The notes under the pieces are model-generated. The model worked only from the letters and a program-made list of their open reading frames with translations. It had not been told where the DNA came from and searched no databases. A stretch of DNA of 64,000 nt from a candidate division NPL-UPA2 bacterium Unc8 (GTDB lineage: Bacteria > NPL-UPA2), in assembly GCA_003574845.1 (NCBI GenBank), contig NDHY01000004.1:12723-76722 (forward strand), written 5' to 3'. Position 1 is the stretch's first letter, and the number at the start of each line of letters is the position of its first letter. The translations under genes and the position numbers were made by a program. This document shows, piece after piece, positions 13,551-47,768 of this stretch.

Positions 13551-13650
13551 TAAAAGCAGAAGCCAGAATCCAGAAGCCAGAATTCAGAATAGAAGAAGTA
13601 TAGGCTTCCAGCAACTTGCTGACTTCTGACTCCTGAATTGGTGGCGTTGT
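13551..13650. repeat. CAGAAK-unit tandem repeats arranged as an imperfect palindrome
   Basis: gcagaagccagaatccagaagccagaattcagaa ... ttctgacttctgactcctgaattgg. The same unit family recurs at 25499-25600. Confidence 0.7.
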
Positions 13651-13694
13651 GCAACCAGTTGTAATTATATCCTTATTAAGAAAGGGAGGAAAAA

Positions 13695-14447
13695 ATGAAA
13701 GTGGTATTGAAGGTTTTCTTGACGTTAGTTTTCCTGACGTTAGTTTTTCTGGCTACGGCTACGGTTGAGCTCTTGGGGTGTCCACCTCCCGCAGAGCCAA
13801 AGGTAGATGTAGAAGCGGTCAGAAGTGATATAGATGGAATTAAAAGGGATATGGAAGCTTTTAAAAAAGCTGTGAATGTCATCCATCCGCAATCCGATGT
13901 AATTGTCTCTGAGGAAACCCTCCCTCAGGAGATAAGGGATATGGCAGAGACGATTCACCTGAGCAGCCACGGGCTTAAATACCTTATGCCTTATATGGAA
14001 AAGGTTATAGAGGAGCTTGACAGGTATAAAGAAAACCCCCAGACGCATAAGAAGGAAATCCTTTATGCAGCTGGGGGACTTGAAGCCCTAAGAAAGGCTT
14101 CTATAAAAATAATGCAGGAAAAAAGGTTCATCTCCCTTATGGAGCTTCCCTATCCTGAGAAAGCACCGCATAAAATAGCACATGTGCTTCTGGAAAAAGA
14201 AGAGATCAGGGCAATTGAGGAGACCAAAAAGGCAGCTGGGGATATTCATATCGCTATGCATGGGCTTGAGGATGCTTTAACCTCTATGAAGCTTAATCTG
14301 AAGAAGATTTTCGAAGCTTTTGTCGGTGAGGGTATGGCGAGGGCGGGCAGCACCGGTTATACCCGGCTCCAGTTGGCAGTGATGGCGGGGTGTGTCATCT
14401 GGGGATTTATCGGCACCGCTCTGTTCTTCAATAGGAGGGGCGGCTGA
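13695..14447 (+). CDS. His-rich predicted lipoprotein with C-terminal TM anchor, translationally coupled to cbiM (candidate metal-delivery component)
   Basis: Signal peptide with lipobox LLGC; a 15-bp tandem duplication inside the signal peptide; many His in helical repeats; a C-terminal hydrophobic helix; the stop overlaps the cbiM ATG (TGATG). Confidence 0.55.
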   Translation: MKVVLKVFLTLVFLTLVFLATATVELLGCPPPAEPKVDVEAVRSDIDGIKRDMEAFKKAVNVIHPQSDVIVSEETLPQEIRDMAETIHLSSHGLKYLMPYMEKVIEELDRYKENPQTHKKEILYAAGGLEALRKASIKIMQEKRFISLMELPYPEKAPHKIAHVLLEKEEIRAIEETKKAAGDIHIAMHGLEDALTSMKLNLKKIFEAFVGEGMARAGSTGYTRLQLAVMAGCVIWGFIGTALFFNRRGG

Positions 14448-15166
14448 TGCACATTTCAGATGGCGTGTTATCGCCTCAAGTCTGGATATCTGGATATGTG
14501 ATTACCGTGGCATTAACCGCTTATGTCTTAGCCAGGAAAACGGACACCAGCGAACTGCCGAAACTCTCGATAATTACCGCGGCTCTCTTTGTGGCTTCAT
14601 TAATCCATATACCGATAGGTCCAACAAGCGTTCATCTGGTATTGACCGGCTTAGCCGGAATAACCCTCGGACTGCTTGCTTTTCCGGCTGTTCTCGTCGC
14701 CTTAATCCTGCAAGCCCTTCTTTTCCAGCACGGAGGTATAACTACCATAGGGATAAACACCATTAATCTGGGACTTCCGGCACTGGCAGTCTATGGGCTT
14801 TTTCTCCTCGGAACCAGGACTAATATCAGAGGAAAACATGGAATATTCGGTGGTTTAGCCGGTGGAATGGCTGTAGCTCTGGGCATACTGCTTCTCTCCT
14901 TGAGTTTGCTCGTTACCGGTGAGCACCTTAAAGATGTGATTCCGTTCGTCGTTGTAGCGCATCTTCCGTTAATAGCAATTGAGGCTATAGTTGTGGGTGC
15001 TTTTGCTGGATTTGTGAGGAGAGTTAGTCCACAGGTATTAAAAAATGGTAGAGTATCCTCAAATCGACAGATATGCCGGACTTACCTCCCCGATCCACCG
15101 CTGGGACCCGCGGGCCAAGCTGGTCGCTATCCTTGGTCTGATCTTCTCGGTGGTGCTCATCACTGA
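14447..15166 (+). CDS. cbiM: ECF transporter substrate-specific component CbiM/NikM (Co/Ni)
   Basis: N-terminal MHISDG (Met1-His2 metal-ligand motif) and multiple TM helices. The C-terminal ~35 aa overlap cbiQ in a different frame. Confidence 0.85.
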   Translation: MHISDGVLSPQVWISGYVITVALTAYVLARKTDTSELPKLSIITAALFVASLIHIPIGPTSVHLVLTGLAGITLGLLAFPAVLVALILQALLFQHGGITTIGINTINLGLPALAVYGLFLLGTRTNIRGKHGIFGGLAGGMAVALGILLLSLSLLVTGEHLKDVIPFVVVAHLPLIAIEAIVVGAFAGFVRRVSPQVLKNGRVSSNRQICRTYLPDPPLGPAGQAGRYPWSDLLGGAHH

Positions 15167-16537: not shown

Positions 16538-16558
16538 ATTAGTCTTAGGGTCTGTAGC

Positions 16559-18449: not shown

Positions 18450-18461
18450 TATAGTTCCTCT

Positions 18462-19373: not shown

Positions 19374-19560
19374 TTAAAAATCTCCTTTATTGTTCTAAAT
19401 AAATCCTACCCCCTTACTCCGCGGAGGTTCAAGGATACAGCAATCCGAATCAAAAGTCCAAATAAATAATCAGCATTATTTTGACACGACCCCTTAAAAA
19501 ACTTAACATGTGACAGCAGAATGTAGTATAATCAGGAAATGACGTGCTTTGTTGTGATTA

Positions 19561-22014: not shown

Positions 22015-22029
22015 ATAAGACTTGACTTT

Positions 22030-23709: not shown

Positions 23710-23711
23710 AA

Positions 23712-24371: not shown

Positions 24372-24487
24372 TGACCCCTTTGAATTTCTTTTTCATGCTC
24401 GGGACATCTTCAAGCACTACCTTCATCACCGGCAGGATAGCCCTTAAAATTATTCTTGAAGTAATTAAATCTTTTTCGGTAGCCATA

Positions 24488-25498: not shown

Positions 25499-25678
25499 AA
25501 GTAACCTCCCTATCTTAAACAGGAGCCAGAATTCAGAATTCAGGAGCCAGGAGCCAGAATTCAGAATTCAGAAGTCAGAAGCCAGAATTCAGAAGTCAGA
25601 ATCTGAGATTTGTCATTTCTATGTGCCTCTGTGCCTTTGTGCCTTTGTGCCTCTCTAATAGCCTACAGCCTACAGCCT
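25499..25678. repeat. Composite tandem-repeat spacer (CAGAAK units, GTGCCTYT units, CAGCCTA units) between the two transketolase subunit genes
   Basis: aggagccagaattcagaattcagg...gtgcctctgtgcctttgtgcctttgtgcctctctaatagcctacagcctacagcc. Confidence 0.8.
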
Positions 25679-26542: not shown

Positions 26543-26548
26543 TGCGTT

Positions 26549-28803: not shown

Positions 28804-29097
28804 ATGAAGGTGTTAATTGGGGGAATAGTAGCATTACTGTTTGGATTGTGGGGATTAATTGGCTGGTGGAGTGAATTTGTAGGCATATTGCAAGGCACGA
28901 TACCTTTCCTTCTACTGGTCGGCGGCTCAATAGCCACTTATGCAGGAATAGCTTCTGCGAAAGATAGAGCGGCCAAGAAGAAAGAAGAAGAGATAAAAGA
29001 AATAGAAAAGAGAGAAGAAAAATTCAAGAAAGAGAAAGAGAAAAAAGAAATAGACAAGGAAAGAAGAAGAGCTCAAGAAAGAAAAGGAAAAGGGTAA
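28804..29097 (+). CDS. Small membrane protein (2 TM) with Lys/Glu-rich tail
   Basis: Strong SD AGGAGGT 9 nt upstream, two hydrophobic helices, low-complexity KE-rich C-terminus. Confidence 0.45.
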   Translation: MKVLIGGIVALLFGLWGLIGWWSEFVGILQGTIPFLLLVGGSIATYAGIASAKDRAAKKKEEEIKEIEKREEKFKKEKEKKEIDKERRRAQERKGKG

Positions 29098-29540
29098 GGG
29101 AAAAAAGAAAGTCGTAAGGAGAAAAGTAGTAAGGAAAAAGTCAGAGACCTGAGTTTCTTTTTTTCCGATTGTTTGTGTTTAGCTTCAAGCATCTTTTCTT
29201 TTGCGCGGCGGGAACGTCTGCGTTTCTGCCTGCGAATTTTCTCAATACGCTGCTTTTCCTCAAGTATAAAACCTTCCTGCCATTTTTCAATAAGGTCTAA
29301 AAGTCTGCGCCGGGCAAGAAAGCGATTTAAAGATTGAGAGCGTTCTATCTGACATTTGACTATAATATTAGTTGGTAGGTGACGAAGAAACACGCAGGTT
29401 GAAGCCTTATTGACCTTTTGTCCTCCAGGACCAGATGAGCGAATAAATTTCTCCTCTAAGTCCTCTTCAGAAACTCCCAATTTTTGCATGCGCTCTTCAA
29501 GCTTCCGTTCCTTATGAGCAGATATATTGAACATAAACAA
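29073..29540 (-). CDS. arfB: Alternative ribosome-rescue factor ArfB (peptidyl-tRNA hydrolase, class-I release-factor-like)
   Basis: SSGPGGQKVNKASTCV GGQ motif plus a basic C-terminal tail; about 150 aa. Confidence 0.75.
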   Translation of the reverse strand: MFMFNISAHKERKLEERMQKLGVSEEDLEEKFIRSSGPGGQKVNKASTCVFLRHLPTNIIVKCQIERSQSLNRFLARRRLLDLIEKWQEGFILEEKQRIEKIRRQKRRRSRRAKEKMLEAKHKQSEKKKLRSLTFSLLLFSLRLSFFPYPFPFLS

Positions 29541-29591
29541 TTTTCAATTTTCAATCGTTAATTTTTGAACCGTGAACCTTGACCGCTTTTA

Positions 29592-30107: not shown

Positions 30108-30119
30108 TACTATTTACCT

Positions 30120-30170
30120 CCAAAATCACCCCTGACAAATGGTCAACATTATTCTGATACGACCCCTTAG
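30120..30170. repeat. Solo copy (about 51 bp) of the MITE-like terminal repeat; its terminal CCCCTTA contains the ppcA stop codon
   Basis: ccaaaatcacccctgacaaatggtcaacattattctgatacgaccccttag matches 36579-36629 at about 44 of 51 positions. Confidence 0.6.
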
Positions 30171-32517: not shown

Positions 32518-32520
32518 CTC

Positions 32521-34879: not shown

Positions 34880-34899
34880 TTCTCATTATGTAAATATTC

Positions 34900-35040
34900 A
34901 ATGAACCCCATTAGTAAGACACAAAGGCACACTTGAATTTCGGTAATTTGAGTTTTGAGTTTGTTTAGAGTTTAGAGTTTCATATTTAGAGTTTAGGCTT
35001 CTCTGTGCCTCTGTTTCTAGTGAGTAAGGCTCCGAGAAAA
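34900..35040. repeat. Tandem-repeat block (TAGAGTT/TTGAGTTT units, GTGCCTCT units)
   Basis: aatttgagttttgagtttgtttagagtttagagtttcatatttagagtttaggcttctctgtgcctctg. Nearly the same string recurs at 46180-46260. Confidence 0.75.
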
Positions 35041-35060
35041 GAGCGGCTACTCCTCTCTAT

Positions 35061-35594
35061 CTAAGGGCGAGTAATTTCTGCCCCTTCTCTTTCACGAGCT
35101 ATTTTAGTTATAAAGACCTTAATTGATGCAATGTTCTTTATTCCCAAAACGCCTTCTACGTATTCTCTGATTGTTCCTTGAATGCGGGTGGTAGCCTCAG
35201 GAATATTAATGTTTGGTTCCAGTGTAAGCCGAGCATTAATTTCCAATCCCTTTTTTGTTATTGAGAGCTCAGGCTTCATTTCCCGAACCTCGTCAAATCT
35301 CAGTCTCTTAAGAAACTCTTCAACGGCGCCAAACGAAACTCTTACCTCTCCTTCAGGATTTCGAAAGGATATTGTCAACCCATAGCGAATTTCTCTCACT
35401 AAGAGATAAACAAGATAAACTCCTCCTCCTAAAAGAAGAGCCCCAACAATTATAGTGGGAATAATCTGCTCCTGGATAGATATAAGAATTTGCTTAATTC
35501 CCTCTACTGGTAGCCACCCAATCGCAAGAAAAATCAGAAATAGCCCCATGACCACTAAGATAACCATTGAAAAAAAGATAATAAACTTCTTCAT
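35061..35594 (-). CDS. Asp23/Gls24-family envelope stress protein with N-terminal TM helices
   Basis: The alternating hydrophobic pattern ...EVRVSFGAVEEFLKRL...IKVFITKI resembles the Asp23 (DUF322) family; two N-terminal TM helices. Confidence 0.45.
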   Translation of the reverse strand: MKKFIIFFSMVILVVMGLFLIFLAIGWLPVEGIKQILISIQEQIIPTIIVGALLLGGGVYLVYLLVREIRYGLTISFRNPEGEVRVSFGAVEEFLKRLRFDEVREMKPELSITKKGLEINARLTLEPNINIPEATTRIQGTIREYVEGVLGIKNIASIKVFITKIAREREGAEITRP

Positions 35595-35669
35595 CCTCCT
35601 CCCTCCTTAAATAAATAACAACCTTTACAACCTAACAACCTACAGCCTACAGCCTATCTACCTGAGCAA

Positions 35670-36227
35670 TTATATTCTTCCTGAATATTTTCCTGTTCTG
35701 GTGTCAATGCGAACGAGGTCGTTGTCCTTAATGAAAAGTGGTACCTGGACGGTAGCTCCTGTCTCAAGAGTAGCCACCTTAAAGCCTCCGCCAACCGTAT
35801 CACCGCGCACTCCCGGCTCTGTTCTGACAATCAGCAACTCAACAAATTGAGGAAATTTTACTTCCATGGGTTTTTCATTATGCATGGAAGCAGTAAGCAC
35901 CATTTCTTCTTTCAAAAATTTTGTCTTCTCCCCCAACTGACTTTCAGTCAATATCACTTGCTCATAACTCTCCAGGTCTATAAAGTAGAAGTTATCCTCG
36001 CTCTGATAGAGATACTGAATCTCCTTTTCCCTTAAAGTCGCCTCTGCCACCTTCTCGCCGGAACGGAATGTTCTTTCTATGATGCGACCACTCTTTAACT
36101 CTTTGAGTCGCGCTGGTATGAGAGCGCCTCCTTTTCCGGGCTTCACATGTTCAAAAGAGATAACCTCGTAAAGCCCCCCTTCCAGCTCAAGTACCATGCC
36201 TTTACGGAACTGAGATGTAGGCATCAT
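35670..36227 (-). CDS. efp: Elongation factor P
   Basis: N-terminal FRKGMVLELEGGLYEVISFEHVKPGKGGA; 185 aa. Confidence 0.95.
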   Translation of the reverse strand: MMPTSQFRKGMVLELEGGLYEVISFEHVKPGKGGALIPARLKELKSGRIIERTFRSGEKVAEATLREKEIQYLYQSEDNFYFIDLESYEQVILTESQLGEKTKFLKEEMVLTASMHNEKPMEVKFPQFVELLIVRTEPGVRGDTVGGGFKVATLETGATVQVPLFIKDNDLVRIDTRTGKYSGRI

Positions 36228-36348
36228 TTTTTCTATGATACTAATAAAGCTTTCACTCTGTCAAGAAACTATTACAGAAATTATTACAAGATTATTAAAG
36301 GTAAGCGTTCAGCAGTCTGCTGAAAGCTGACCGCTGATGGCTGAATGC

Positions 36349-36628
36349 TTAGGGGTCGTATCAGAATAATCTTGACTATTTGGAGTCCCAGATTTGAGGT
36401 CAGTGCAAGGTGCGACGAGGGCAGTGTGCCCGCTGTGGCACATAACCGAGGAACAACCGCCGCAAGGGCCCAAAGACGGGACCCCCCGAAGGGCCAGGTC
36501 GCTTTTGGGCTGCGACTGTGTCGCTCATCGCTTCCGTAGCGCTTTGGCTACGCTTCACTCTTCGTTCCTTGTCTCGCTCCAAAATCACCTCTGGCAAATA
36601 GTTAATGTTATTTTGATACGACCCCTTA
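36349..36628. mobile_element. MITE-like non-autonomous element: about 280 bp, about 35-bp terminal inverted repeats, GC-rich non-coding core
   Basis: Left end ttaggggtcgtatcagaataatcttgactatttg is the reverse complement of right end caaatagttaatgttattttgatacgaccccttac at about 30 of 35 positions. The core has many short hairpins and no plausible ORF. The right terminal TTA is the topA stop codon. Confidence 0.5.
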
Positions 36629-38671
36629 CTCTGTGCTTGTATAATTGCATTTTTCATTGATGCACTGGAGGTAACCTCCTCTCCTCTTTTTTACCACAAG
36701 AAACCTGGCTCCGCAGGAAGGGCATTCTTTTGCAATCGGTTTATCCCAGGTGGAAAAATTACACTCTGGGTAACGATTGCAGCCAAAGAAGATTTTCTTT
36801 TTTCGTGTCCTTTTTTCCACAATTTCGCCATCACACTTATCTTCGGGACACTTTATACCAAGACCAATCGGTGCAGTATATTTGCACTGTGGATAGTTTT
36901 TACAAGCGAAAAATTTTCCGTACTTTCCAATTTTTATCGTAAGATTACCGTCACATTCAGGGCAGGTTCTGTCAGTGGCAATCTCCATTTTTTTTACTTT
37001 ATCATTTGCCTTATCCAGCATAGCAATAAATGGATGGTAAAAGTCACTCAACAATTTCATCCAGTCAGATTTTCCGTCTTCAATCCTATCCAGCTCATTT
37101 TCTATGTGAGAGGTAAACTTTAAATCCATTATCTTCGGAAAACGTGCAACAAGCAGATTAATCACCATTACTCCAAGTTCGGTTGGGTAAAATTTACCAT
37201 CAACCTTTTCTACGTATTCCCGCTGCTCAATCGTTTGAATTATCGGAGCATATGTACTTGGTCTGCCAATTCCTTCTTCTTCAAGCACTTTTACCAGCGT
37301 AGCATCAGAGAATCTGGGCAAAGGCTTAGTAAAGTGCTGCTTTTCCTGAAGAGCAATAACATCCAACTTTTCACTCATTTGAAGATCGGGAATATTACTT
37401 TCTTCTTCCTTATCACCATAGATAATTGTGAAGCCGAGAAACTTAATGTTCACTCCCTTTGCCTGCAAATTAAATTTGCCTGCCTTTATCTTAATTGTTG
37501 TCAGTTTAAACAAGGCTGGCTTCATCTGGCTGGCAAGGAAGCGGAGCCAGATCATGTGATAGAGCCTGTACTGTTCAGGCGAAAGAAATTCTTTCATTTT
37601 CTCTGGCTCTCGTCGGATGCTCGTTGGCCTTATTGCCTCATGAGCTTCCTGCGCTCCTTTCCTTGAGCGGTAGACGGGAGATTTAGAAGGAGCAAAATCC
37701 CTTCCAAATTTCTCTTTGATATAAGTAGATGCTTCTTTCTGGGATTGCGAGGAAAGACGCACCGAATCAGTTCTCATATAAGTAATCAACCCTACTCTTT
37801 CCTTCCCGATTTCAATCCCCTCATAGAGCTCCTGAGCAATGCGCATCGCCTTAGTTGGTGTAAATCTAAGTTTTCTTGCTGCCTCCTGCTGAAACTGACT
37901 TGTAGTAAATGGCGGCGGAGGATTTTTCTTTTGCTCCTTTTTCTCTATGCTTTCAACAAAAAACTCTTCTTTTCTTAACTCATAGATTACTCTCTTTGCC
38001 TCTGATTCATTATCAATCTCTGCTTTTTTGCCACTGATTTTTTCCAATTTTGCTTCAAAATCCCCTTCTTCCCCCACCTTCTTCTTTAGCTTCGCAGCAA
38101 TTGTCCAGTATTCCCTGGAAACAAAATCGGCAATTTCTTTCTCGCGGTCGCATACTATCCGCAGCGTTACTGACTGCACTCTCCCGGCACTTAAGCCCTT
38201 GCCAATCTTTTTCCAGAGAAAAGGACTAAGCTTATAGCCGACAATACGATCAAGAATGCGGCGCGCCTGCTGAGCTTTCACTTTGTTTAAATCTATTTCC
38301 CTGGGGTTTTTAATTGCTTTTTCAACCTCTTCTTTGGTAATTTCATTAAAAGTAACCCGATAGAGGTTATCTCCACCAAGCACTTCTGATAAGTGCCAGG
38401 AAATCGCCTCTCCTTCCCGATCAGGGTCTGAAGCAAGAAACACTTTCTCAGCACTCTGGGAGTTCTTTTTTATCTCTTTAATCACCTCTTTTCTTTGAGG
38501 AATAATAATGTAATGAGGACGGAAGCCATCTTCCGGGTCAATGCCAAATCTATCCCTGGGAAGGTCGCGGATATGCCCCAGACAGGACTTGACACTATAA
38601 CTGCTTCCCAGAAACTTATCTATCGTTCTCGCTTTTGCTGAAGATTCCACAATTACCAATAACTTTGGCAT
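36626..38671 (-). CDS. topA: DNA topoisomerase I with C-terminal zinc ribbons
   Basis: N-terminal LVIVESSAKARTIDKFLG Toprim, catalytic Tyr region, three C-terminal Cys4 ribbons; 681 aa. Confidence 0.9.
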   Translation of the reverse strand: MPKLLVIVESSAKARTIDKFLGSSYSVKSCLGHIRDLPRDRFGIDPEDGFRPHYIIIPQRKEVIKEIKKNSQSAEKVFLASDPDREGEAISWHLSEVLGGDNLYRVTFNEITKEEVEKAIKNPREIDLNKVKAQQARRILDRIVGYKLSPFLWKKIGKGLSAGRVQSVTLRIVCDREKEIADFVSREYWTIAAKLKKKVGEEGDFEAKLEKISGKKAEIDNESEAKRVIYELRKEEFFVESIEKKEQKKNPPPPFTTSQFQQEAARKLRFTPTKAMRIAQELYEGIEIGKERVGLITYMRTDSVRLSSQSQKEASTYIKEKFGRDFAPSKSPVYRSRKGAQEAHEAIRPTSIRREPEKMKEFLSPEQYRLYHMIWLRFLASQMKPALFKLTTIKIKAGKFNLQAKGVNIKFLGFTIIYGDKEEESNIPDLQMSEKLDVIALQEKQHFTKPLPRFSDATLVKVLEEEGIGRPSTYAPIIQTIEQREYVEKVDGKFYPTELGVMVINLLVARFPKIMDLKFTSHIENELDRIEDGKSDWMKLLSDFYHPFIAMLDKANDKVKKMEIATDRTCPECDGNLTIKIGKYGKFFACKNYPQCKYTAPIGLGIKCPEDKCDGEIVEKRTRKKKIFFGCNRYPECNFSTWDKPIAKECPSCGARFLVVKKRRGGYLQCINEKCNYTSTE

Positions 38672-38709
38672 AGAAATCCTTTTGATTATTATCTGTGCTC
38701 AGGGTCTTT

Positions 38710-38823
38710 AGATTGTTACTTACCTTATGCGAACCTCTGGCCAAGCGTGGCCAAGAAACCACCCGGAAATTGGTTCTATTAACCAGAGAACGCCAATAGC
38801 TAACATTATTATTCCTGTTATAA
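38710..38823 (-). CDS. Small hydrophobic peptide (37 aa, single TM) between apbE and topA
   Basis: Read by hand: ATG with GGAGGTGA SD 5 nt upstream. MLAFITGIIMLAIGVLWLIEPISGWFLGHAWPEVRIR. It is below the ORF-track length cut-off. Confidence 0.4.
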
Positions 38824-38928
38824 AAGCCAACATTTATCTCACCTCCTCTTATCTTTTGCTTTTTTATTACCTCTGTGTTGAATTTTACTGTGATTTCAGC
38901 TTCTGTCAAATAAAATTTATGGGATATT

Positions 38929-39975
38929 TTACTCCAGAGTCACTTTTTCATTCACATTGGTTGATATTGTTATCTGGCGATTACCATCTTCGTCTTCGCT
39001 TACGATGATTACTCCTATTTCTTCTATTGCCTCTGTTAGCTTTATGCCTTTCTCGCGTCCAAGGACAAAAATTGCAGTAGAAAGACCATCAGCAAATGTC
39101 GCATTAGGGGCAATAACAGTAACACTCTGCATTCTTTCTACTGGAAGACCGGAACGTGGATCAATAATATGATGGAATCGCCGGCCGCCGATTATAAAGT
39201 ACCAGCGATAATCACCGGATGTTACTACTGCCTCATCGCGCAAATCAAGGGAAGCAAAAATTTCACCTTTTTCTCGCGGGTCTTCTATTCCAATGCGCCA
39301 CCATTCTCGCTCATGTGGCTTTCCAAGAAGATAGAGGTCTCCTCCAGCATTAACCATCGCATTCTTTATTCCATGTTTTTCCAATGCCATAATAGCCATG
39401 CTGACAGCATGCCCCTTAGCTATCCCGCCCAGGTCAATCCCCATACCTGCTTTCTCTAAGCCAACTGCGAGATTGGCGGTATCAAGTATAATGTATCGCC
39501 AATTAACGAGGACACGCGCTGCTGCTATTTCAACATCGGTGGGAAGAGCGTTTTGCTCACGAGCAGCGCGCCACAAAGTCATCAGTGGAAGAATCGTAAT
39601 GTCAAAGGCGCCATCAGTCATTTCAGAGATACGAATAGACTCTTCAATAAGGCGAAAAGTACACTCACTTACCACAACCATCTGCCCTGCCTCGCTGGTA
39701 TTTATGTTCCATACATCACTTCCTTTCCTAAACCTGCTCATCGTATTATGAACTCTTTCCACCTCAGCAAAGGCAGCGGCAACAGCAACAGCAGCATCCT
39801 TTCCCCACGCAGAGATTTCAACTTCAGTTCCCAACAGAAACCTCACTTCCCTGACAAAGGGGAGTTGCTGGAATTGCTCATCTTCTGCAGGAATCCTCGT
39901 AAGAATTAGAAGTCCCACCAAAAGAACAAAGAGAAAAACAAATCCAAAAGATTGTTTTGACATTTTCATCCTCAT
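38929..39975 (-). CDS. apbE: FAD:protein FMN transferase (ApbE family)
   Basis: Signal/TM N-terminus and the GGIAKGHAV motif; 348 aa. Confidence 0.85.
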   Translation of the reverse strand: MRMKMSKQSFGFVFLFVLLVGLLILTRIPAEDEQFQQLPFVREVRFLLGTEVEISAWGKDAAVAVAAAFAEVERVHNTMSRFRKGSDVWNINTSEAGQMVVVSECTFRLIEESIRISEMTDGAFDITILPLMTLWRAAREQNALPTDVEIAAARVLVNWRYIILDTANLAVGLEKAGMGIDLGGIAKGHAVSMAIMALEKHGIKNAMVNAGGDLYLLGKPHEREWWRIGIEDPREKGEIFASLDLRDEAVVTSGDYRWYFIIGGRRFHHIIDPRSGLPVERMQSVTVIAPNATFADGLSTAIFVLGREKGIKLTEAIEEIGVIIVSEDEDGNRQITISTNVNEKVTLE

Positions 39976-40043
39976 TCAGATTCTATACCAAAAAACTGCA
40001 CAAAATGCAATGCCTTTACTCATACTGTAGGCTGAAAGCTGAT

Positions 40044-40077
40044 AGCTGATAGCTATTTTTTCTTGACGGGATTTTGG
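40044..40077. repeat. 34-bp exact repeat agctgatagctattttttcttgacgggattttgg (copy 1), preceded by GCTGAWAGC tandem units
   Basis: Identical to 53304-53337. Contains TTGACG. Sits upstream of leuC. Confidence 0.7.
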
Positions 40078-40162
40078 GGGGTGTAGTAGGCTTTATATCA
40101 GGTAGATAGACTGATAGCTAAACCCTGAACCCTTTCCCGAACGGAGCGAGAGTAAGCTTGTT

Positions 40163-41428
40163 ATGGCAATGACGATAACTGAAAAGATATTAGCTGCTCA
40201 TTCAGGAAAAAAAAGCGTCTTTCCTGGCAAACTCATTGAAGCAGACGTTAGTCTCATCCTTGCCAATGACATCACCGCTCCCATGGCGATTGACGAATTT
40301 GAAAAAGTTGGCGGCAAATTATTTAATCCGGAAAAGATTGTCCTTGTTCCAGACCACTTTACCCCGAATAAAGACTTAAAATCTGCCGCTCAGTGTTTAA
40401 AGCTGAGAGATTTTGTAAAGAAAAACAAGGTAAAGCATTATTTTGAGGTTGGGAGAGGCGGAATTGAGCATGTGCTCCTTCCCGACGAGGGACTTGTTTT
40501 GCCCGGGGACCTTATCATCGGCGCTGATTCCCACACCTGCACCTATGGGGCAGTGGGGGCATTTGCTACCGGGGTAGGAAGCACTGACATTGCTGCTGCA
40601 ATGATTACCGGCAAAGTGTGGCTAAAAGTTCCTGAGACGATAAAACTTATCTACCATGGGAAAAAACTAAAGAAATGGGTAACCGGCAAGGACCTCATCC
40701 TGCATACAATCAGGGACATAGGTGTTGAAGGAGCAAACTATCAGGCAATGGAATTCTGCGGGGAGATGGTTTCCAGGCTTGATATGGCGGCAAGATTTAC
40801 AATGGCAAATATGGCGATTGAGGCAGGTGCGGAAAATGGAATTTTTGAGGTAGACAAAAAGACTACTTCCTACCTTAATTCTACACCGGCGCACTACAGA
40901 CAGGAAATCGCCGCCGCAAGCGACCCGGACGCTTCTTATTGTAGAAGGAGAGAATATGATTGCGAAGCGCTTGAACCTCAGGTAGCCGCTCCTCCGCTCC
41001 CTTCCAATGCCCGCCCTGTTTTAGAATTCACCGATGTCCGCATTGACCAGGCATTAATTGGCTCCTGCACAAACGGACGAATTGAGGATTTGAGATTGGC
41101 AGCAGAGGTTCTCAGCGGCAGGAAAACTCATCCTGATGTCCGGCTGATTATAATTCCGGCAACACAGAAAGTCTATCTTCAGGCGCTCAAGGAGGGATTA
41201 ATTGAAATATTCATCTCCTCCAATGGCGTCGTTTCCACTCCAACCTGCGGACCCTGTCTTGGCGGACACATGGGAATACTTGCTCGTGGAGAGGTAGCAA
41301 TAGCAACTACAAATAGAAATTTTATTGGAAGGATGGGACACCTTGAAAGTAAGGTTTACCTGGCAAATCCAGCCATTACTGCCGCCTCTGCCATCAAGGG
41401 AAGAATTGCCCATCCCGACGAGGTATAA
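40163..41428 (+). CDS. leuC: 3-isopropylmalate / homoaconitate dehydratase large subunit (short archaeal-type aconitase-family LeuC/HacA)
   Basis: MAMTITEKILAAHSG N-terminus and the aconitase Cys ligands (GSCTNGR, CGPCLG); 421 aa. No small-subunit gene is adjacent. Confidence 0.85.
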   Translation: MAMTITEKILAAHSGKKSVFPGKLIEADVSLILANDITAPMAIDEFEKVGGKLFNPEKIVLVPDHFTPNKDLKSAAQCLKLRDFVKKNKVKHYFEVGRGGIEHVLLPDEGLVLPGDLIIGADSHTCTYGAVGAFATGVGSTDIAAAMITGKVWLKVPETIKLIYHGKKLKKWVTGKDLILHTIRDIGVEGANYQAMEFCGEMVSRLDMAARFTMANMAIEAGAENGIFEVDKKTTSYLNSTPAHYRQEIAAASDPDASYCRRREYDCEALEPQVAAPPLPSNARPVLEFTDVRIDQALIGSCTNGRIEDLRLAAEVLSGRKTHPDVRLIIIPATQKVYLQALKEGLIEIFISSNGVVSTPTCGPCLGGHMGILARGEVAIATTNRNFIGRMGHLESKVYLANPAITAASAIKGRIAHPDEV

Positions 41429-41462
41429 ATAAGAGAGGCACAAAGGCACAGAGGCATAGAGT

Positions 41463-42398
41463 ATGACAGGGGTGAAAAAAAATACTGTTTTACTTACTTT
41501 GAGGTTGCCTGACATTAAGATGCTTAAACAGGGGAAAGTGCGGGATATTTATGACCTTGGCAATAAGCTTCTGATTGTGGCAACAGACCGCATCTCAGCA
41601 TTTGATGTCGTCTTACCCGATGGCATTCCTGACAAAGGAAAGGTGCTGACCGGATTGTCGGTATTCTGGTTTGGGCTCACCAAAGAGATTATAAGTAATC
41701 ATCTTATTACTGCCGAGAGTGCTCTTTTTCCGGAGAGATTGCAAGAGCACGCTGAAGTTCTTAATGGTCGTGTGATGCTGGTGCAAAAGGCAGATGTAAT
41801 TCCGATTGAATGCGTCGTTCGCGGCTACTTAGCAGGCTCAGCATGGAAGGAATACCAGGAAACAGGTTCAGTCTGTGGAGTTAAGCTTCCATACGGTCTC
41901 TTGAGGGGAGCGCCTATTCCTGAGCCTATCTTCACCCCTGCTACTAAAGCTACTTGGGGGCATGACATTAACATCAGTGAAAAGGAGGCGGGAGAACTGG
42001 TGGGACATAAACTGATTCAGGAGCTGAAAGCAAAAAGTCTGAAAATTTACTCTATGGCAAGCCGTTATGCTGAGCATAGGGGAATAATTATCGCTGATAC
42101 GAAACTTGAGTTCGGTAGAATAGATAATAAAACCATTTTAATAGATGAACTGTTAACCCCGGATTCATCACGATTCTGGCCATATGAAGACCTTTTCCCA
42201 AAATTACCTGATGAGGCTCTATCACAGGCAGATAGAACACAAAGGAGCTTTGACAAGCAGTTTGTTCGGGATTATCTGGAAATGGTGAACTGGGATAAAG
42301 CCCCGCCTCCGCCACACCTACCCCCCGAGATTATTGCAAAGACAAGCGAAAAATATCATGAAGCATACCTTAGACTCACTGGAAGGAGATGTAATTGA
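41463..42398 (+). CDS. purC: Phosphoribosylaminoimidazole-succinocarboxamide synthase (SAICAR synthetase, long type)
   Basis: GKVRDIYDLGNKLLIVATDRISAFD signature. The true start is possibly the ATG at 41520. Confidence 0.85.
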   Translation: MTGVKKNTVLLTLRLPDIKMLKQGKVRDIYDLGNKLLIVATDRISAFDVVLPDGIPDKGKVLTGLSVFWFGLTKEIISNHLITAESALFPERLQEHAEVLNGRVMLVQKADVIPIECVVRGYLAGSAWKEYQETGSVCGVKLPYGLLRGAPIPEPIFTPATKATWGHDINISEKEAGELVGHKLIQELKAKSLKIYSMASRYAEHRGIIIADTKLEFGRIDNKTILIDELLTPDSSRFWPYEDLFPKLPDEALSQADRTQRSFDKQFVRDYLEMVNWDKAPPPPHLPPEIIAKTSEKYHEAYLRLTGRRCN

Positions 42399-43099
42399 AA
42401 AAAATTAAATATATTGATGACCTGGCAAAGCTTGACCTCTGCCGCGGTGAGCGGACAGGTATTCCTGAGGCGGTCTTTGCTGAAGCAAAGCAACCTGCCG
42501 ATGTGGTCAGCATTCTTAAAGCGCTGGTGGAAGAGAAAGGGTATGCAATGGCAACCAGGGTTACCTCAGCATGCCTTGAAGCAATTAAAGAATCTGATTT
42601 TAGCCCATATAAAGTGCAGATGTATCCCAGGGCACGCATCGTTGTTATGTCTAAAAAGAATAGAAAGCAAAAGCAGGACACAGGTGCCGCCGTCGGGTTG
42701 ATAGCAGCAGGAACAGCTGATATCTCCATTGCTGAAGAGGTAAAAGTTACGGCTACTGAGATGGGCTGCGAGGTAATTTATGCCTATGATGTGGGAGTGG
42801 CTGGTATTCATCGGCTTATTGCTCCTCTGAAGGAGATGAGAAAGAAAAGAGTCTCGGTAATTGTCGTTGTGGCAGGAATGGATGCCGTGCTTCCAATTGT
42901 CGTTAAGGGGATGGTAGCTACCCCTGTCATCGGTGTTCCTACCTCTATTGGCTATGGCTATGGCGGTGGTGGAGAGGCGGCACTGATGACCATGCTTCAG
43001 TCCTGTTCTCCCGGTCTTGTGGTAGTTAACATAGATAATGGCTTTGGTGCCGGAGCGACAGCTGCTCTTATTGCTAAAGGTGCGGCAAAAGGATTATAA
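42395..43099 (+). CDS. larB: PurE-like carboxylase of the LarB type (nickel-pincer cofactor biosynthesis family) with about 60-aa N-terminal extension
   Basis: PurE-fold motifs (GLIAAGTAD, VVVAGMDAVLP, PVIGVPTSIGYG) plus a LarB-like N-terminal extension with RGERTGIPE. It is distinct from the bona fide purE at 60138. Confidence 0.55.
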   Translation: MKKIKYIDDLAKLDLCRGERTGIPEAVFAEAKQPADVVSILKALVEEKGYAMATRVTSACLEAIKESDFSPYKVQMYPRARIVVMSKKNRKQKQDTGAAVGLIAAGTADISIAEEVKVTATEMGCEVIYAYDVGVAGIHRLIAPLKEMRKKRVSVIVVVAGMDAVLPIVVKGMVATPVIGVPTSIGYGYGGGGEAALMTMLQSCSPGLVVVNIDNGFGAGATAALIAKGAAKGL

Positions 43100-43101
43100 C
43101 A

Positions 43102-43683
43102 ATTAACGAAAAACAAAAAATCAGGAAAAAATTTCTTGAAGAAAGAGGACATCTATCAGAAGTTTTTGTTACTGAAAACAGTGCAAAGATATGGGAGAGA
43201 CTCTCATCGCTAAGAGAATTCCGGGAAGCAAAAACTATTATGTTCTATGCAGCAAAAGAAAATGAGGTAAGAACCGAGAATATGATTAAGGAATCCATCC
43301 GTATGGGGAAAAGGGTGACGGTCCCCGTGATGATGAAAGAAAGGACACTGTCTCCATCTCTTCTGACCGATTATGATGCAGAACTAACTGCCAAACGTTT
43401 TAAAATATTGGAGCCGAAGGAAGAGTGTCTTCATTTTTTGCCGATTGAGGAGATTGAAGTAATTATTGTTCCCGGCGTCGTTTTTGACAGGAATAGAAGT
43501 AGAATTGGATTCGGAAAAGGATTTTATGATAACTTTTTAAAGGAAATCAGTAGCAAAACATGCGCAATCGGAATCGCTTATCAATTTCAGATAGTTGATA
43601 AGCTACCGGTTGAGGAAACAGATATCTCAATAGATATTATTGTAAGCGAAAATGAAGTTATTATTAGCCCCACGGGGATTTGA
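43102..43683 (+). CDS. 5-formyltetrahydrofolate cyclo-ligase (MTHFS); no canonical start codon
   Basis: The only ATG (43240) would truncate the conserved N-terminus. The in-frame upstream translation INEKQKIRKKFLEERGHLSEVFV...FYAAKENE matches the MTHFS N-terminus. The C-terminal GFGKGFYD motif is present. Confidence 0.65.
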   Translation: MNEKQKIRKKFLEERGHLSEVFVTENSAKIWERLSSLREFREAKTIMFYAAKENEVRTENMIKESIRMGKRVTVPVMMKERTLSPSLLTDYDAELTAKRFKILEPKEECLHFLPIEEIEVIIVPGVVFDRNRSRIGFGKGFYDNFLKEISSKTCAIGIAYQFQIVDKLPVEETDISIDIIVSENEVIISPTGI

Positions 43684-43737
43684 ACCCCGGTCTCCAGACT
43701 GAGAATCTGGCATCCTGGGCCTCTAGACGATGGGGCC
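43665..43737 (-). tRNA. tRNA-Glu (anticodon CUC)
   Basis: Folded by hand into a cloverleaf: acceptor GGCCCCA/TGGGGCT, D-arm GTCT-AGAGGCCCA-GGAT, anticodon stem CCAGA/TCTGG with loop TTCTCAG, T-arm CGGGG-TTCAAAT-CCCCG. It is highly similar to bacterial tRNA-Glu and has no encoded CCA. Confidence 0.75.
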
Positions 43738-43789
43738 AGAGGAATAATAAATTGGCACTTATTGATGCGACACTACCAGAACACAGAGA

Positions 43790-44815
43790 TTAAGGCAAAG
43801 AAAAATGGTCATATCCTGCTGGAAAGAGCCGGTGGGAGTTGCCTTTTTTGTCAATTAGTAACAACTCTTTTTTCTTGCTAATCTCACCTATTTTGCTTAT
43901 GGAGACCCCGAGCACATTGGTGATTGGTGATTGGTGATTGGTGATTGGTGCTCTTGTGCTCTTGTGCTCTTCTTTGTGCCTTTGTGCCTTTGTGCCTTTG
44001 TGCCTTTCTTTTATGGCTGCAGCAGTGAAGAGAAGCTGATAATCCTCTCCTCCTTCAAGAGCCAATTTTAACGGAGCTTTTCCGATTTTCTTTGCCGTTA
44101 TTCTGGTCTCATCAGAGATTGGGATTGCTTCCTCATAAATTTTTGCTCCTACCCTGCTTGCTTCGCAGATATGCATAATGTCACTGGAAAGCCCATCACT
44201 TATGTCAATCATTGAAGTTGGCTTAAATTTCTTAATAATTTCTCTCCCTTCATTAATAAGAGGCAAAGTGGGAATGTGTTTGCCCGCTAACCTTGCCGCA
44301 GCAGTTGCTCCAAGGTGCCCTGTAACAAATATTTCATCTCCTGATTTTGCCCCGCTCCGATGCACGAGAAACTTCTCGGTCACCTCACCCAGAAGAGAGA
44401 TATTTATCATCATACCTTCAGGGGACCTTGCAGTGTCACCTCCAACGATGGCAACTGCAAATCTTGCTGCTACTTTTTTTATTCCACGATAGACTTCATT
44501 GACGAATGTTACCGATGTTTCCGGGGTGAGAGCAACAGAAACAACGGCATATTTAGGAATGCCTCCCATTGCAGCAATATCACTTAAATTCACCGCCATT
44601 GCCTTCTCTCCCACCTGATATGGAGTAAGCAAGTCTGATGAAAAGTGAATATTTTCAATCAGGCTGTCCGTAGTAAATAAAATAAACTTTTTGGCGCCGC
44701 ATCTGATGACCGCAGCATCATCCCCAATTCCAGTAACTACGGCAGAGTTCACAATAGGAATCCCCTGTGTAAAGTGCTTGATTAGATTAAACTCTCCCAA
44801 CTCCTTCAGATTCAT
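43790..44815 (-). CDS. thiL: Thiamine-monophosphate kinase with in-frame repeat-encoded insertion
   Basis: N-terminal GEFNLIKHF...GIGDDAAVI (AIR-synthase-like fold) and C-terminal GYDHF ThiL motifs. An 84-bp tandem-repeat block (43917-44008) is translated in frame near the C-terminus. Confidence 0.85.
43917..44008. repeat. Composite microsatellite block (TGATTGG x4, TGCTCTTG x3, TTTGTGCC x4) lying inside the thiL coding sequence
   Basis: ggtgattggtgattggtgattggtgattggtgctcttgtgctcttgtgctcttctttgtgcctttgtgcctttgtgcctttgtgcc. Confidence 0.85.
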
Positions 44816-45951
44816 CGAAAAATTCTCCTTGCTAAAAGACTTTTTCTAATGCTGATTGCGTCCTCAGGGCACAACTCGCGACAGCAAAGGCAGAGGATGC
44901 ATTTGTGATAATTAATTCTTGGGTAGCCGTCGGTAAGAGAGATGGCATCAACAGGGCAGTTTTCTCTACAAATCAGACATCTCGTGCACTTTTTGCGGAG
45001 AGGAACAGGCTTAACCATTACCTGTCGCGCAATAAGACTCAAAATTGGGCCAGGAATTCTTCTTGTCAGGCGGGCACTCAAAGGGAGAATGAAATCATCA
45101 ATGCTCACCTCCTCCAGAGACTCTCCTAAAACCTCTATCTCCTTCAAACCAGATACTCCAAGACTTCTTTTTGTCGCTGCCTTTGTTGTGGGGACATCAA
45201 AAGGTGCCAACCCTATCATTGCCTGAGCAATGGTATCAAGAGCAACTGAGTCTTTACTTGCCAGAATTACTCCGATGTCTCTCAGCTTACCATGAACAGG
45301 TCCGTTTCCTTCCATTCCAACAACGGCATCAAGAATTGCCATCACTGGCTTCATTACTGAGAAAATGTCGGCCAGCGCTTCACCAAAGTCATCCGGCTTT
45401 GGGCACCGTTTATGAATCTCAGCCTTACCGAGACCGGGAATAAGCCCCATAAGGTTTTTAACTGCTCCTGTGTATAATGTAAGGTCGTGTGTCTTGAGTT
45501 TGGGAAGGGTTATAATGGCATCTACCTCAAGTGCGACAGCAGGAATATAAAGCTTCTGATAAATTACGCCATGAGGGACACTTATCTCCCTACTATTCTC
45601 CTCCAGGCTTACAAGTTTTGCGCCAGTCATTTCGGAAATCTTCTTATATCCAGAAATTTCCCAATAATAACTCAGCCCATTTTTTATTATACCTCCAGGA
45701 CTGTCGCCAATAAGAACCTCTGCACCCTCTTCTTTCAATAACTCAACGACTGCCTGGACTACAGCAGGATGAGTATCTACTCCACTCTCTGGTGGTTTTG
45801 CGGAAAGCATATTCGGCTTGACCAGAATACGACTACCTTTCTTTACAATCTCACCCAGACCACCAATCAGGGTCAGTGCTTGTCTGACCGCACCCCGGAC
45901 GTCTTTTTCATTATAATCCCTGCATCGGACAATGGAAACCTTTGCTTTCAA
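44812..45951 (-). CDS. DUF362-domain protein with C-terminal 2x[4Fe-4S] ferredoxin domain
   Basis: C-terminal [12 protein letters not shown] and [12 protein letters not shown] clusters; 379 aa. Confidence 0.7.
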
Positions 45952-45959
45952 AGAGAACC

Positions 45960-46290
45960 TCCAGTAAAGCGCTACATCTGTAGGCGGTTTTTCTGAAGAT
46001 AATTTAAATCAAACTTCGCCCATATAGTCAAGAAAAACAACTACAAATCCCAAATAAGAAGACCACCAGAGCACCAGTCACCCACAGGGGTCAGGGATCA
46101 GGGGTCAGAATCCAGAATTTAGGTTTTAGCCCTGAATCAAGTTCAGGGTAGGTTTTAGGTGTCAGGTTTTAGAGTTTAGAGTTTTGAGTTTTGAGTTTGT
46201 TTAGAGTTTAGAGTTTCGTATTTAGAGTTTAGGCTTCTTTGTGCCTCTGTGCCTCTCTAATAGCTTTCAGCCTACAGCCTGAGCGGTTTG
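45960..46290. repeat. Approximately 330-bp divergent intergenic region filled with tandem repeats (GGGGTCAG, TAGAGTTT/TTGAGTTT, GTGCCTCT, CAGCCTA units)
   Basis: cagaatccagaatttaggttttagccctgaatcaagttcagggtaggttttaggtgtcaggttttagagtttagagttttgagttttgagtttgtttagagtttagagtttcgtatttagagtttaggcttctttgtgcctctgtgcctctctaatagctttcagcctacagcc. Confidence 0.8.
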
Positions 46291-47610: not shown

Positions 47611-47768
47611 CATAAGGGTGTCAGGTCTTGCGATGTGACTTCCGAGAGTAGACCTTCCCTGTAGAGCAAAAATCCTTTGCTAAATAAGCAAATTTGTCTT
47701 ATTATGCTCCTACCTAAACAACAAGTAATCAGGCTGAAGGCTGTTAGATAGAGGGAAAGTTTTAAAAA

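Follow-up and report, generated by a model that had tools for sequence, protein, structure and literature searches.

Cyanobacterial tandem heptamers such as CCCCAGT, TTGGTCA and CAACAGT, initially reported from Calothrix, are known as short tandemly repeated repetitive (STRR) sequences. Heptameric repeats are, more generally, over-represented in the intergenic DNA of many bacteria (PMC4692102), and the same work, which cites the three tandem heptanucleotides of Calothrix PCC 7601, describes abundant heptamer arrays built from GGGAATC in Xanthomonas (about 185 arrays) and from GGGGAYT in Nostoc (Rehm et al. 2015, PMC4692102). Xanthomonad arrays mostly occupy the same gene gaps in sister species, vary in length and sequence and sometimes occur as inverted pairs; the preference for 7 nt has been ascribed, as a proposal, to slippage of the polymerase (PMC4692102). 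Marine Beggiatoaceae, Microcystis and a few Bacteroidetes have arrays of TAACTGA, in many cases alongside further heptamers, and contigs break at them (MacGregor 2015, PMC4679880), and a translational role and binding by a cold-shock protein have been suggested for them (PMC4679880). The present work concerns a family of such short tandem arrays in a 64,000-nt stretch (the window; GenBank assembly GCA_003574845.1, contig NDHY01000004.1, positions 12,723 to 76,722) of candidate division NPL-UPA2 bacterium Unc8, whose metagenome-assembled genome (MAG) comes from The Cedars serpentinizing springs and comprises 996 kb in 24 contigs, hand-refined from 291 contigs with the help of manual extension and joining (PMC6305446).

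In every structural trait tested, the Unc8 arrays agree with the intergenic heptameric repeats already described, and they are to be counted among them. What they add is a host lineage, NPL-UPA2; the kind of system itself is not new. This is a point that the original prediction, made from the sequence alone, had missed: the kind of sequence is already described in cyanobacteria, xanthomonads, Beggiatoaceae and some Bacteroidetes (PMC4692102, PMC4679880). Repeats are not mentioned in the Unc8 genome paper (PMC6305446), and the literature searched held nothing on repeats in NPL-UPA2 genomes and nothing on AAAGGCAC arrays.

Tandem Repeats Finder (TRF), run on the whole window, returned 66 rows, the commonest periods being 7 (15 rows) and 8 (6 rows), with other periods rarer; rows of period 7 or 8 with at least 2.5 copies were counted as arrays. 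A rough gene map drawn from non-overlapping open reading frames (ORFs), about 30 of which were named with NCBIfam and Pfam, divides the window into 59,279 coding and 4,721 non-coding nt. In the non-coding part, 17 such rows cover 515 nt, against a mean of 0.07 rows and 1.5 nt, and a maximum of 23 nt, in 100 dinucleotide-preserving shuffles of the same DNA. Overall, period-7/8 repeats cover 530 of the 4,721 non-coding nt as opposed to 95 of the 59,279 coding nt, and those 95 nt are a single in-frame insertion in thiL. Copy number per array ranges from 2.5 to 11.7. The density of 9.8 nt/kb, compared with at most 0.9 nt/kb in six unrelated control loci, bears out the earlier impression that it is unusual for a bacterium, and the summed module spans, by our own addition, reach roughly 970 nt, about one fifth of the non-coding DNA of the window.

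The original prediction had placed the family at 13551-46290, in most intergenic regions and genome-wide. TRF finds arrays at or near every coordinate it listed, and the family extends further, from 7997 to 54445. Intergenic placement holds as a general rule, with the exception of the array at 43916-44007, which lies inside the thiL reading frame. Arrays are common between genes, although "most" overstates the case: by our own count on the gene map, one is present in 11 of the roughly 20 gaps that measure 60 nt or more, and also in two shorter spacers, that between leuC and purC (34 nt) and 29541-29591. Thirteen array sites lie in the window and three more on a second Unc8 contig, so that the family does reach beyond the window, although "genome-wide" is a somewhat strong word for two contigs. 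The individual features are as follows, z denoting folding compared with shuffles.

7997..8096 (+), between a GPH-family transporter gene and waaA: AGGGTTC/AGGATTC/AGGGGTC units, 3.3 copies, a 50-nt spacer, then ACTTTTRA, about 4 copies (TRF 7997-8023 and 8075-8096).
13557..13636 (+), between a fur-family gene and an unknown ORF: CAGAAKC, 4.9 copies, a 24-nt gap, then the inverse array ACTTCTG, 3.1 copies (TRF 13557-13590 and 13614-13636); weakly hairpin-like, z = -1.6.
25520..25678 (+), a mosaic that takes up the whole spacer of the transketolase subunit gene pair (genes on the - strand): CAGRAKY, 11.7 copies, TGTGCCTY, 4.1 copies, CTAATAGC, and CAGCCTA, 2.7 copies (TRF 25520-25602, 25622-25654 and 25660-25678); no excess structure, z = +1.25.
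29538..29555 (+), in a 51-nt spacer: CAATTTT, 2.6 copies.
34947..35015 (+), between amaP and thiE: TTTGAGT/TTTAGAG, 7 copies, GGCTTCT, then CTGTGCCTCTGT (TRF 34947-34996).
35616..35661 (+), between efp and amaP: TAACAACC, 3 copies, and TACAGCC, 2 copies (TRF 35616-35656).
36296..36345 (+), just upstream of the efp promoter-like site TTGACA-18-TATCAT (36264-36235, - strand): GCTGANN heptamers and their inverse partner, forming the hairpin TTCAGCAGTCTGCTGAA; z = -4.6.
40024..40078 (+), in the divergent apbE/leuC gap: GCTGAWA, 3.4 copies, then ATTTTTTCTTGACGGGATTTTGGG (TRF 40031-40054).
40111..40135 (-): an inverse AGGGTTC-type array, AAAGGGTTCAGGGTTTAGCTATCAG on the - strand, 80% complementary to 7995-8019.
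41431..41461 (+), filling the 34-nt leuC-purC spacer: AGAGGCAC, 3.5 copies (TRF 41434-41461); 91% complementary to 25627-25659.
43916..44007 (-), within thiL (43790-44815, - strand): on the sense strand, AAAGGCAC, 4.5 copies, AAGAGCAC, 3 copies, and CACCAAT, 5 copies.
46085..46285 (+), the largest mosaic, in the divergent gap between a DUF362 gene and uvrC: first CAGGGRT, 3.4 copies, CAGAATY, 2 copies, and TTAGGTTTTAGGTG units around a 19-nt hairpin; then TTTAGAG/TTTGAGT, 9.7 copies, GGCTTCT, TTGTGCCTC, 2 copies, CTAATAGC, and CAGCCTA, 2 copies (TRF 46085-46108, 46168-46232 and 46240-46256).
46130..46148 (+): the perfect 19-nt hairpin CCCTGAATCAAGTTCAGGG embedded in that array.
47730..47747 (+), about 20 nt upstream of the ribosome-binding site of the aspartate kinase gene: a two-unit array, CAGGCTGAAGGCTGTTAG, below the TRF threshold.
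53236..53338 (+), downstream of valS: GGGGTCA, 2.5 copies, and ACTTGACC, 2.8 copies, as a hairpin (z = -3.75; TRF 53253-53274), followed by GCTGANN, 3.4 copies, and ATTTTTTCTTGACGGG.
54410..54445 (+): AAACTCA, 4.4 copies, the reverse complement of the TTTGAGT family, 89% complementary to 46168-46203 (TRF 54415-54445).

The arrays are head-to-tail direct repeats without spacers between units, and adjoining arrays are joined into mosaics. Their vocabulary comprises CAGAAKY, GCTGANN, GGGGTCA, CAGCCTA, TTTAGAG/TTTGAGT, ATTGGTG, GTGCCTYT, GTGCTCTT, ACTTGACC and ACTTTTRA; the 6- and 9-nt units first proposed were wrong, CAGAAK being the heptamer CAGAAKY, GCTGAWNGC the heptamer GCTGANN, and a further unit, GGGGTCAG, the heptamer GGGGTCA. 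The claim that arrays are concatenated in a recurring order stands: on the + strand the modules run CAGGGNT, CAGAAKY, (TTTAGAG), GTGCCTYT, CTAATAGC, CAGCCTA at 46085-46285, at 25520-25678 and at 2328-2380 of the second Unc8 contig. Equally well founded is their reported occurrence within operons, between the transketolase subunit genes and between leuC and purC. Longer composites are dispersed as well, namely 34947-35014 and 46183-46250 (68 nt, 97% identity; D6), 40024-40078 and 53284-53338 (55 nt, 93%; D8), and 25635-25678 and 46237-46280 (44 nt, 93%; D11); a further dispersed segment, CTAAYAGCCTWCAGCCTACAGCCT, occurs three times. The 55-nt repeat common to the gaps upstream of leuC and downstream of valS ends in ATTTTTTCTTGACGGGATTTTGGG (40055-40078 and 53315-53338), an A/T tract plus a TTGACG hexamer that resembles a portable -35 region; a simple promoter scan of 33000-48000 flagged nothing at the leuC-upstream copy.

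Folding was no better than in shuffles for 8 of 11 array regions (|z| < 1.6), excess structure being confined to 36290-36350, 53222-53340 and 34880-35060. At two of these places, one upstream of efp (z = -4.6) and one downstream of valS (z = -3.75), an array and a nearby inverse partner make up a hairpin. Promoter and terminator consensus matches are near chance (25 found against 23.4 expected; 28 against 16.4), and these matches and the arrays do not overlap, except that the efp promoter-like site stands beside the GCTGANN array.

Set against the STRR sequences, the Unc8 arrays share tandem 7-nt units in a few to about a dozen copies, many intergenic sites and the juxtaposition of different units, and (TTGGTGA)n, which is the same array as (ATTGGTG)n, lies one base from the STRR2 unit TTGGTCA. 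They differ in that the host is an uncultured, non-photosynthetic NPL-UPA2 bacterium of roughly 1 Mb, whereas STRR hosts have large cyanobacterial genomes, and in their frequent 8-nt units and recurring module order; the canonical STRR1-3 units are not among the TRF consensus units of the window, and the host is not a heterocystous cyanobacterium. With the Xanthomonas and Nostoc repeats they have in common intergenic heptamer arrays, usually of about four units and sometimes in inverted pairs (PMC4692102), and the Unc8 GGGGTCA/GGGATCA arrays are of similar type; unlike them, Unc8 has many unit families in place of one, joined into mosaics of fixed module order, and only three G-runs per array, so that quadruplexes are unlikely. 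The TAACTGA repeats are likewise heptamer direct repeats near start codons, in mixed assemblages, with contig breaks and patchy phylogeny (PMC4679880), and the CTGA core recurs in Unc8 units, but TRF finds no TAACTGA array in the window, and the essentially single unit of Beggiatoaceae contrasts with a dozen or more in Unc8.

Elements of other kinds offer further parallels. The BIME, REP and REPIN elements of enterobacteria and pseudomonads (PMC3116915) resemble the Unc8 arrays as short extragenic repeats in conserved-order mosaics, within operons and at gene ends. A REP unit, however, is an imperfectly palindromic sequence of ~20-40 nt that RAYT transposases mobilise, as against mostly unstructured 7-8-nt direct repeats in Unc8. 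In Unc8, a hairpin of ~20 nt sits in a heptamer array and is shifted in position between near-identical strains. The SDR elements of Nostoc punctiforme, as Elhai and co-workers are said to have reported in 2008, are very small hairpins of 21-27 nt that often lie inside heptamer arrays; they are reportedly multi-copy, whereas the Unc8 hairpin is single-copy in the window and in the related loci compared. Repeat DNA in frame at a tolerated loop of the housekeeping gene thiL recalls the Rickettsia palindromic elements, which Ogata and co-workers reportedly described in 2000 as about 100-150 bp long and in frame in protein genes, although the thiL insertion consists of three concatenated tandem arrays and is no palindromic element.

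Four other classes were considered and rejected. CRISPR, already dismissed in the original prediction for want of unique spacers, is incompatible with directly abutting units of 7-8 nt, as opposed to repeats of 23-50 nt with unique spacers. Collapse into REP/BIME, which that prediction had named as a possible outcome of database searching, was not seen: Rfam gave no match to the arrays, BLAST against E. coli genomes and plasmids found no similarity to them, most lack excess structure and most units are non-palindromic, while the conserved mosaic order is indeed shared. No inverted repeats flank the arrays, which excludes MITEs. Known RNA families were likewise set aside, tRNA-Glu being the sole Rfam match in the window at the gathering threshold; 45900-46400 gave a single chance-level match (RMST_1, E = 0.37, at 45940-46008, outside the arrays), and 36280-36680 gave nothing at E <= 1.

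Restriction to the window, which would have pointed to a local artefact, was checked on the second Unc8 contig (BBPF01002537, locus L098), whose proteins are identical to the Unc8 entries RIH99714 and RIH99710 on a different, 20,499-nt Unc8 contig. It carries arrays at three sites (6-121, 2351-2461 and 3922-3963; 16.6 nt/kb), including the mosaic GTGCYTCT-CTAATAGC-CAGCYTT, and shares composite segments of 42 and 54 nt with the window at 93% and 89% identity, the 89% match pairing window 53254-53307 with L098 2351-2404. Near-identical assemblies of the window region itself (loci L009-L018) provide a further control. The arrays are present base for base in L013 and L015, each 21 kb long at 99.8% identity, and also in L009-L012, L014, L016, L017 and L018; in all, at least eight independent assemblies share them, comprising the NCBI MAGs QLUF, QLUG, QLUH and QLTW, the Logan runs SRR21439978, DRR093103, DRR093104 and SRR8194967, and BBPD and BBPF.

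These assemblies bear directly on whether the arrays could be products of assembly or of manual curation. Suspicion on that score is raised by the manual extension and joining of the Unc8 MAG (PMC6305446) and by the clustering of short-read contig ends in arrays: such contigs tend to start or stop in arrays or dispersed composite segments, those of L011 and L012 ending inside the 34947-35015 module and those of L014 and L016 starting at 46286 or 46227, inside or beside the 46085..46285 mosaic, and ending at 53333. Yet the arrays agree base for base across different samples and pipelines, every assembly that covers the thiL site has the in-frame block, and, because independent assemblies at 99.8% identity carry the same arrays, an artefactual origin is extremely improbable. 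The arrays instead explain why short-read assemblies of the lineage shatter, the first Unc8 MAG having comprised 291 contigs (PMC6305446).

Unit copy numbers, whose comparison between strains the original prediction had proposed, do vary. L010 lacks exactly one 7-nt unit (TAGGCTG) in the efp-amaP array at 35616..35661. Between L013/L015 and the window, the only indels in the 21-kb alignment fall in the array at 46118-46163, and in both strains the hairpin CCCTGAATCAAGTTCAGGG lies one 14-nt double unit further along the array; it occurs once in the window and once in each of L013 and L015, with no further copy in the related loci compared. In L010 and L017, 53 extra nt, including more GCTGANN units, lie inside the inverted array upstream of efp.

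More distant comparisons separate the habit of carrying arrays from their content. All relatives whose ThiL is 72-86% identical carry arrays, mostly of other units, as listed here.

L019, 12.9 period-7/8 nt/kb: GCTTATC, TCGTAAT, AGCGATT and CGTTAAGT.
L001, 40 period-7/8 nt/kb: AGAGGTTC and AACTTGTT.
L196: AGAGAGT, ACTTGTAA and CTGGTGCT.
L199: CCAATCA, ACCGATT and GCTGANN.

Some of these arrays occupy the same gene gaps with other units, downstream of valS, upstream of the aspartate kinase gene and upstream of the DUF362 gene, and L001 repeats the two-part layout of 7997..8096, (RGGTTCA)n ... (AACTTGTN)n, at another locus. In a distant NPL-UPA2 relative (L021 and L022; ThiL 59%), 37 kb held no such arrays. 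Since near relatives carry arrays of other units and the distant relative none, the habit belongs to one clade, within which the content turns over fast.

The sister lineages also carry a dispersed, often paired 13-mer, GATTACACAGATT, at L001 223-264, at L019 5166-5198, 8777-8809 and 11096-11156, in L020 and at L196 19-51. It fills their aspartate kinase-cimA spacer, which measures 3 nt in Unc8, and is not present in the window, even allowing two mismatches. The apbE-topA gap is about 1,040 nt long in the 91%-identical L001 (186-1227) compared with 225 nt in the window (38692-38916), the extra DNA consisting of arrays, GATTACACAGATT copies and GTCATTCYGAGC-type repeats.

The array block within thiL is an insertion into a coding gene. 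It is 75 nt, or 25 codons, long, in frame and built solely of tandem arrays. ThiL has 341 aa here as against 315-329 aa in homologues at 76-86% identity, which lack the 25 residues at exactly this point, a variable loop after a conserved motif; the same 75-nt block is the difference between window thiL and a relative at the DNA level. One of the insertion-free homologues belongs to the MAG that also contains L001, a locus with a topA 91% identical at the nucleotide level to that of the window, and all Unc8 strains covering the site, L013 and L015 included, carry the insertion unchanged. The flanks of the site in the insertion-free L019, AAAGATGGCA... and ...CTCACCAAA, resemble the inserted units, a likeness that suggests to us copying primed on micro-homology, and CCAATCA, equivalent to CACCAAT, forms an intergenic array upstream of the DUF362-thiL operon in the more distant relative L199. 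An AlphaFold model of ThiL was too poor for placing the insertion (mean pLDDT 41.6, from a 10-sequence alignment). The in-frame block shows selection filtering the position and length of arrays. A phase-variable contingency locus was considered and rejected, the sole in-gene array being in frame and identical in all strains and the others lying outside the -35/-10 spacers found.

Taken together, the Unc8 arrays are probably intergenic satellites of the STRR or heptameric simple-sequence-repeat type, prone to slippage, copied between spacers and mostly tolerated. Replication slippage would add or remove whole units, as the unit differences between strains suggest; composites of 40-70 nt, of which near-identical copies are present, would be copied from spacer to spacer, the probable route being recombination or template switching that starts at units with shared sequence or micro-homology; and arrays would persist where they are harmless, in operon spacers, inter-operon spacers, promoter-upstream regions and one surface loop of ThiL, where the length of the insert keeps the reading frame. 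A few would probably have been co-opted, such as the AGAGGCAC array, whose GAGG lies before purC, and the inverted-pair hairpins after valS and before efp. Turnover is rapid, with units differing between lineages of one clade while the array-carrying habit persists. We accordingly read most copies as tolerated passengers in transcribed spacers and promoter-upstream regions.

Several observations weigh against this account. Slippage alone explains neither the dominance of 7 and 8 nt nor the recurrence of GTGCCTYT, CAGCCTA, GCTGANN and CAGGGNT in the same order. A purely neutral satellite does not predict the fixed orientation of three unit families (two others being mixed), and a streamlined genome of ~1 Mb should purge useless DNA, whereas the modules make up ~1/5 of the non-coding DNA of the window. 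Finally, a CTGA/TCAG-type core is enriched both within the clade and in array-rich contigs unrelated to it, a hint that some factor with sequence specificity is involved.

The near-identical composites at several loci on two contigs, together with the fixed, BIME-like module order, would also be expected if the mosaics were very small mobile elements of a non-autonomous kind, akin to BIME/REPIN or the Nostoc SDRs. A transposase would then move them in trans, or they would pass through an RNA intermediate, and their tandem units would be the sites recognised or the targets of insertion. The insertion of arrays into a coding gene, thiL, points the same way, as do the different array positions of the 19-nt hairpin in 99.8%-identical strains, a behaviour like that reported for SDRs, and an IS256 copy that adjoins an array in L018. 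The arrays nevertheless lack bounding terminal inverted repeats and target-site duplications, most modules are direct repeats without palindromic structure, the hairpin CCCTGAATCAAGTTCAGGG is single-copy in all sequence compared, and copies vary in length and unit number where discrete elements would not. Among the ~30 window ORFs scanned, moreover, the only transposase is that of IS256, the ends of which are unrelated to the arrays, and none is of RAYT or IS200/IS605 type. We therefore regard mobilisation of this kind as quite unlikely. The IS256-family insertion sequence of the window occupies 5043-6440 and has 31-nt terminal inverted repeats. In L018 (BBPD01001325; 77-1444), from an older assembly, one end of an IS256 copy directly adjoins the sequence of window position 46271, within the CAGCCTA array, which represents either a strain-specific insertion or a mis-join. 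Neither the UvrC ORF nor the IS256 transposase was matched when looked up exactly.

A second challenge to the satellite reading comes from array orientation, scored with strict patterns at sites whose two neighbouring genes point the same way. Read on the sense strand, ARAGGCAC appears at 3/3 sites, WAGGCTG at 3/3 and CTCWAAA at 2/2, whereas GCTGANN is split 2 to 1 and CAGAAKY is mixed. With the polarity of each family left free, the 8/8 coupling has a probability of about 1 in 32, which is suggestive, not decisive. A later inversion moving genes and arrays together is not its cause, because the divergence of the DUF362 gene and uvrC is shared with L019, in which the arrays differ. Replication-linked strand bias, with 10/12 modules on the + strand, was rejected as well, since it vanishes once gene direction is considered.

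Such coupling keeps alive the possibility, which is the main rival of the satellite reading, that the arrays are functional cis elements acting on the transcript or on nearby promoters, either as platforms of unstructured 7-8-nt sites for a single-strand-binding protein (e.g., a cold-shock or OB-fold protein) or as ribosome stand-by or Shine-Dalgarno-like sites tuning downstream translation. Persistence in a genome of roughly 1 Mb, and in the same gene gaps of relatives with different units, also speaks for function, and arrays fill the read-through operon spacers of the transketolase pair and of leuC-purC. WAGGCTG arrays lie 10-25 nt upstream of ribosome-binding sites in the efp-amaP gap, before the aspartate kinase gene and at L098 11284-11297, and the final GAGG motifs of the AGAGGCAC array would, by our reading, occupy the expected position of the purC ribosome-binding site. 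The TAACTGA repeats offer a precedent: a part in translation has been put forward for them, as has recognition of the heptamer by CspB (PMC4679880). Against function stand the lack of conservation of unit sequences among relatives at 72-86% protein identity, the presence of CAGAAKY and GCTGANN in both orientations, the position of some arrays upstream of a likely promoter and thus outside the transcript (efp and the DUF362 gene), and the modest weight of the orientation result itself; in other organisms, ARAGGCAC arrays show no orientation bias relative to genes (14 against 9). A general cis function is, on this balance, possible but rather improbable, and tolerated satellites remain the preferred explanation.

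A wider scan for the (GTGCCTYT)2.6 pattern recovered at least 120 metagenome contigs ranging in GC content from 27% to 72%; among the matches listed, only L098 is related to NPL-UPA2, and one is a Microcoleaceae cyanobacterium. The notion that GTGCCTYT is a specially over-represented, horizontally shared unit was rejected, composition-matched control octamers giving 10, 1 and 22 viral-contig hits compared with 20. Raw frequency therefore proves nothing, the control octamers being about as frequent, and only co-occurrence with heptamer arrays stands: 48 of the 120 listed contigs have three or more period-7/8 rows, and viral contigs with GTGCCTYT average 2.0 heptamer rows per locus as opposed to 0.25 in control-octamer loci, about eight times as many. 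Several of the IMG/VR viral-classed contigs L143-L162 (GC 41-66%) bear more than one long array of AAGGCACA, at separate positions and with as many as 25 copies, and the contigs with AAGGCACA also hold assorted heptamer arrays of about 4.4 copies each (e.g., L148 3556-3760, 4567-4640 and 12497-12620).

The same comparison reveals a shared core. Among heptamer units of the NPL-UPA2 clade (window, L098, L019, L001, L196 and L199), 9 of 30 contain CTGA/TCAG against 2.1 expected, a count reached by none of 300 within-unit shuffles; in unrelated array-rich contigs (L023-L162), which are not phylogenetically de-duplicated, TGAA is found 27 times against 9.4, CAGA 20 against 8.4 and CTGA 17 against 7.0. 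This enrichment and the co-occurrence with GTGCCTYT across contigs may be taken as a lead only. Along with the multiple AAGGCACA arrays and the orientation coupling, the CTGA/TCAG-TGAA core and this co-occurrence hint that a single conserved process or factor with a preference for certain sequences could have left the arrays behind, as opposed to independent slippage at each site, an idea to which we assign a low probability. It might be a step carried out by a polymerase or primase, a recombinase, or a single-strand-binding protein whose footprint measures 7 nt, and it may be shared or transferred among unrelated phyla, namely cyanobacteria, Beggiatoaceae, xanthomonads, NPL-UPA2 and the sources of many metagenome contigs.

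The window holds several other repeats and features beside the arrays. Between topA and the efp promoter region lies a GC-rich element of 280 bp (36347-36626) with terminal inverted repeats of 32-36 nt (GGGGTCGTATCAGAATAAT...), which is not part of the arrays. Its folding is far stronger than that of shuffles (z = -6.5), and Rfam offers no match for it. Its orientation is opposite in L010 and L017 with flanks unchanged, so that it would be a segment capable of inversion or else a MITE that has inserted anew in the old position. Two other spacers, at 30118-30171 and 19445-19496, hold solo copies of one of its ends. At 53367-53405 and 61923-61961 lie the copies of a dispersed repeat of 39 nt (87% identity), and a small hairpin, CCCCTAACGGGG(TAAA), recurs near 53350 and 54400 and also at about 12925 in L019. 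The spacer after the fur-family gene (13402-13545) contains, just upstream of the CAGAAKC array, AT-rich palindromes (e.g., TTGCAAATAATTGCA) that may be Fur-type operator sites ahead of the unknown ORF and a transporter gene labelled CbiM-like from its translation. At 28976-29085, a purine-rich low-complexity tract (AAGAAAGA...) with periods of 15-48, unrelated to the heptamer family, appears to specify a tail rich in Lys and Glu on a small membrane protein (+ strand ORF at 28804-29097). The EF-P sequence of the window has also been deposited under Candidatus Psychracetigena formicireducens.

Intergenic heptamer arrays have been known since 1990 and are still without an accepted function or mechanism. 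The present case places them in a candidate-phylum genome of ~1 Mb from hyperalkaline, energy-starved water, a setting in which useless DNA should be costly. Because near-identical assemblies show the gain and loss of units, the shift of a hairpin, the invasion of thiL and turnover between sister lineages, the Unc8 lineage constitutes a compact natural system for the origin and spread of such arrays.

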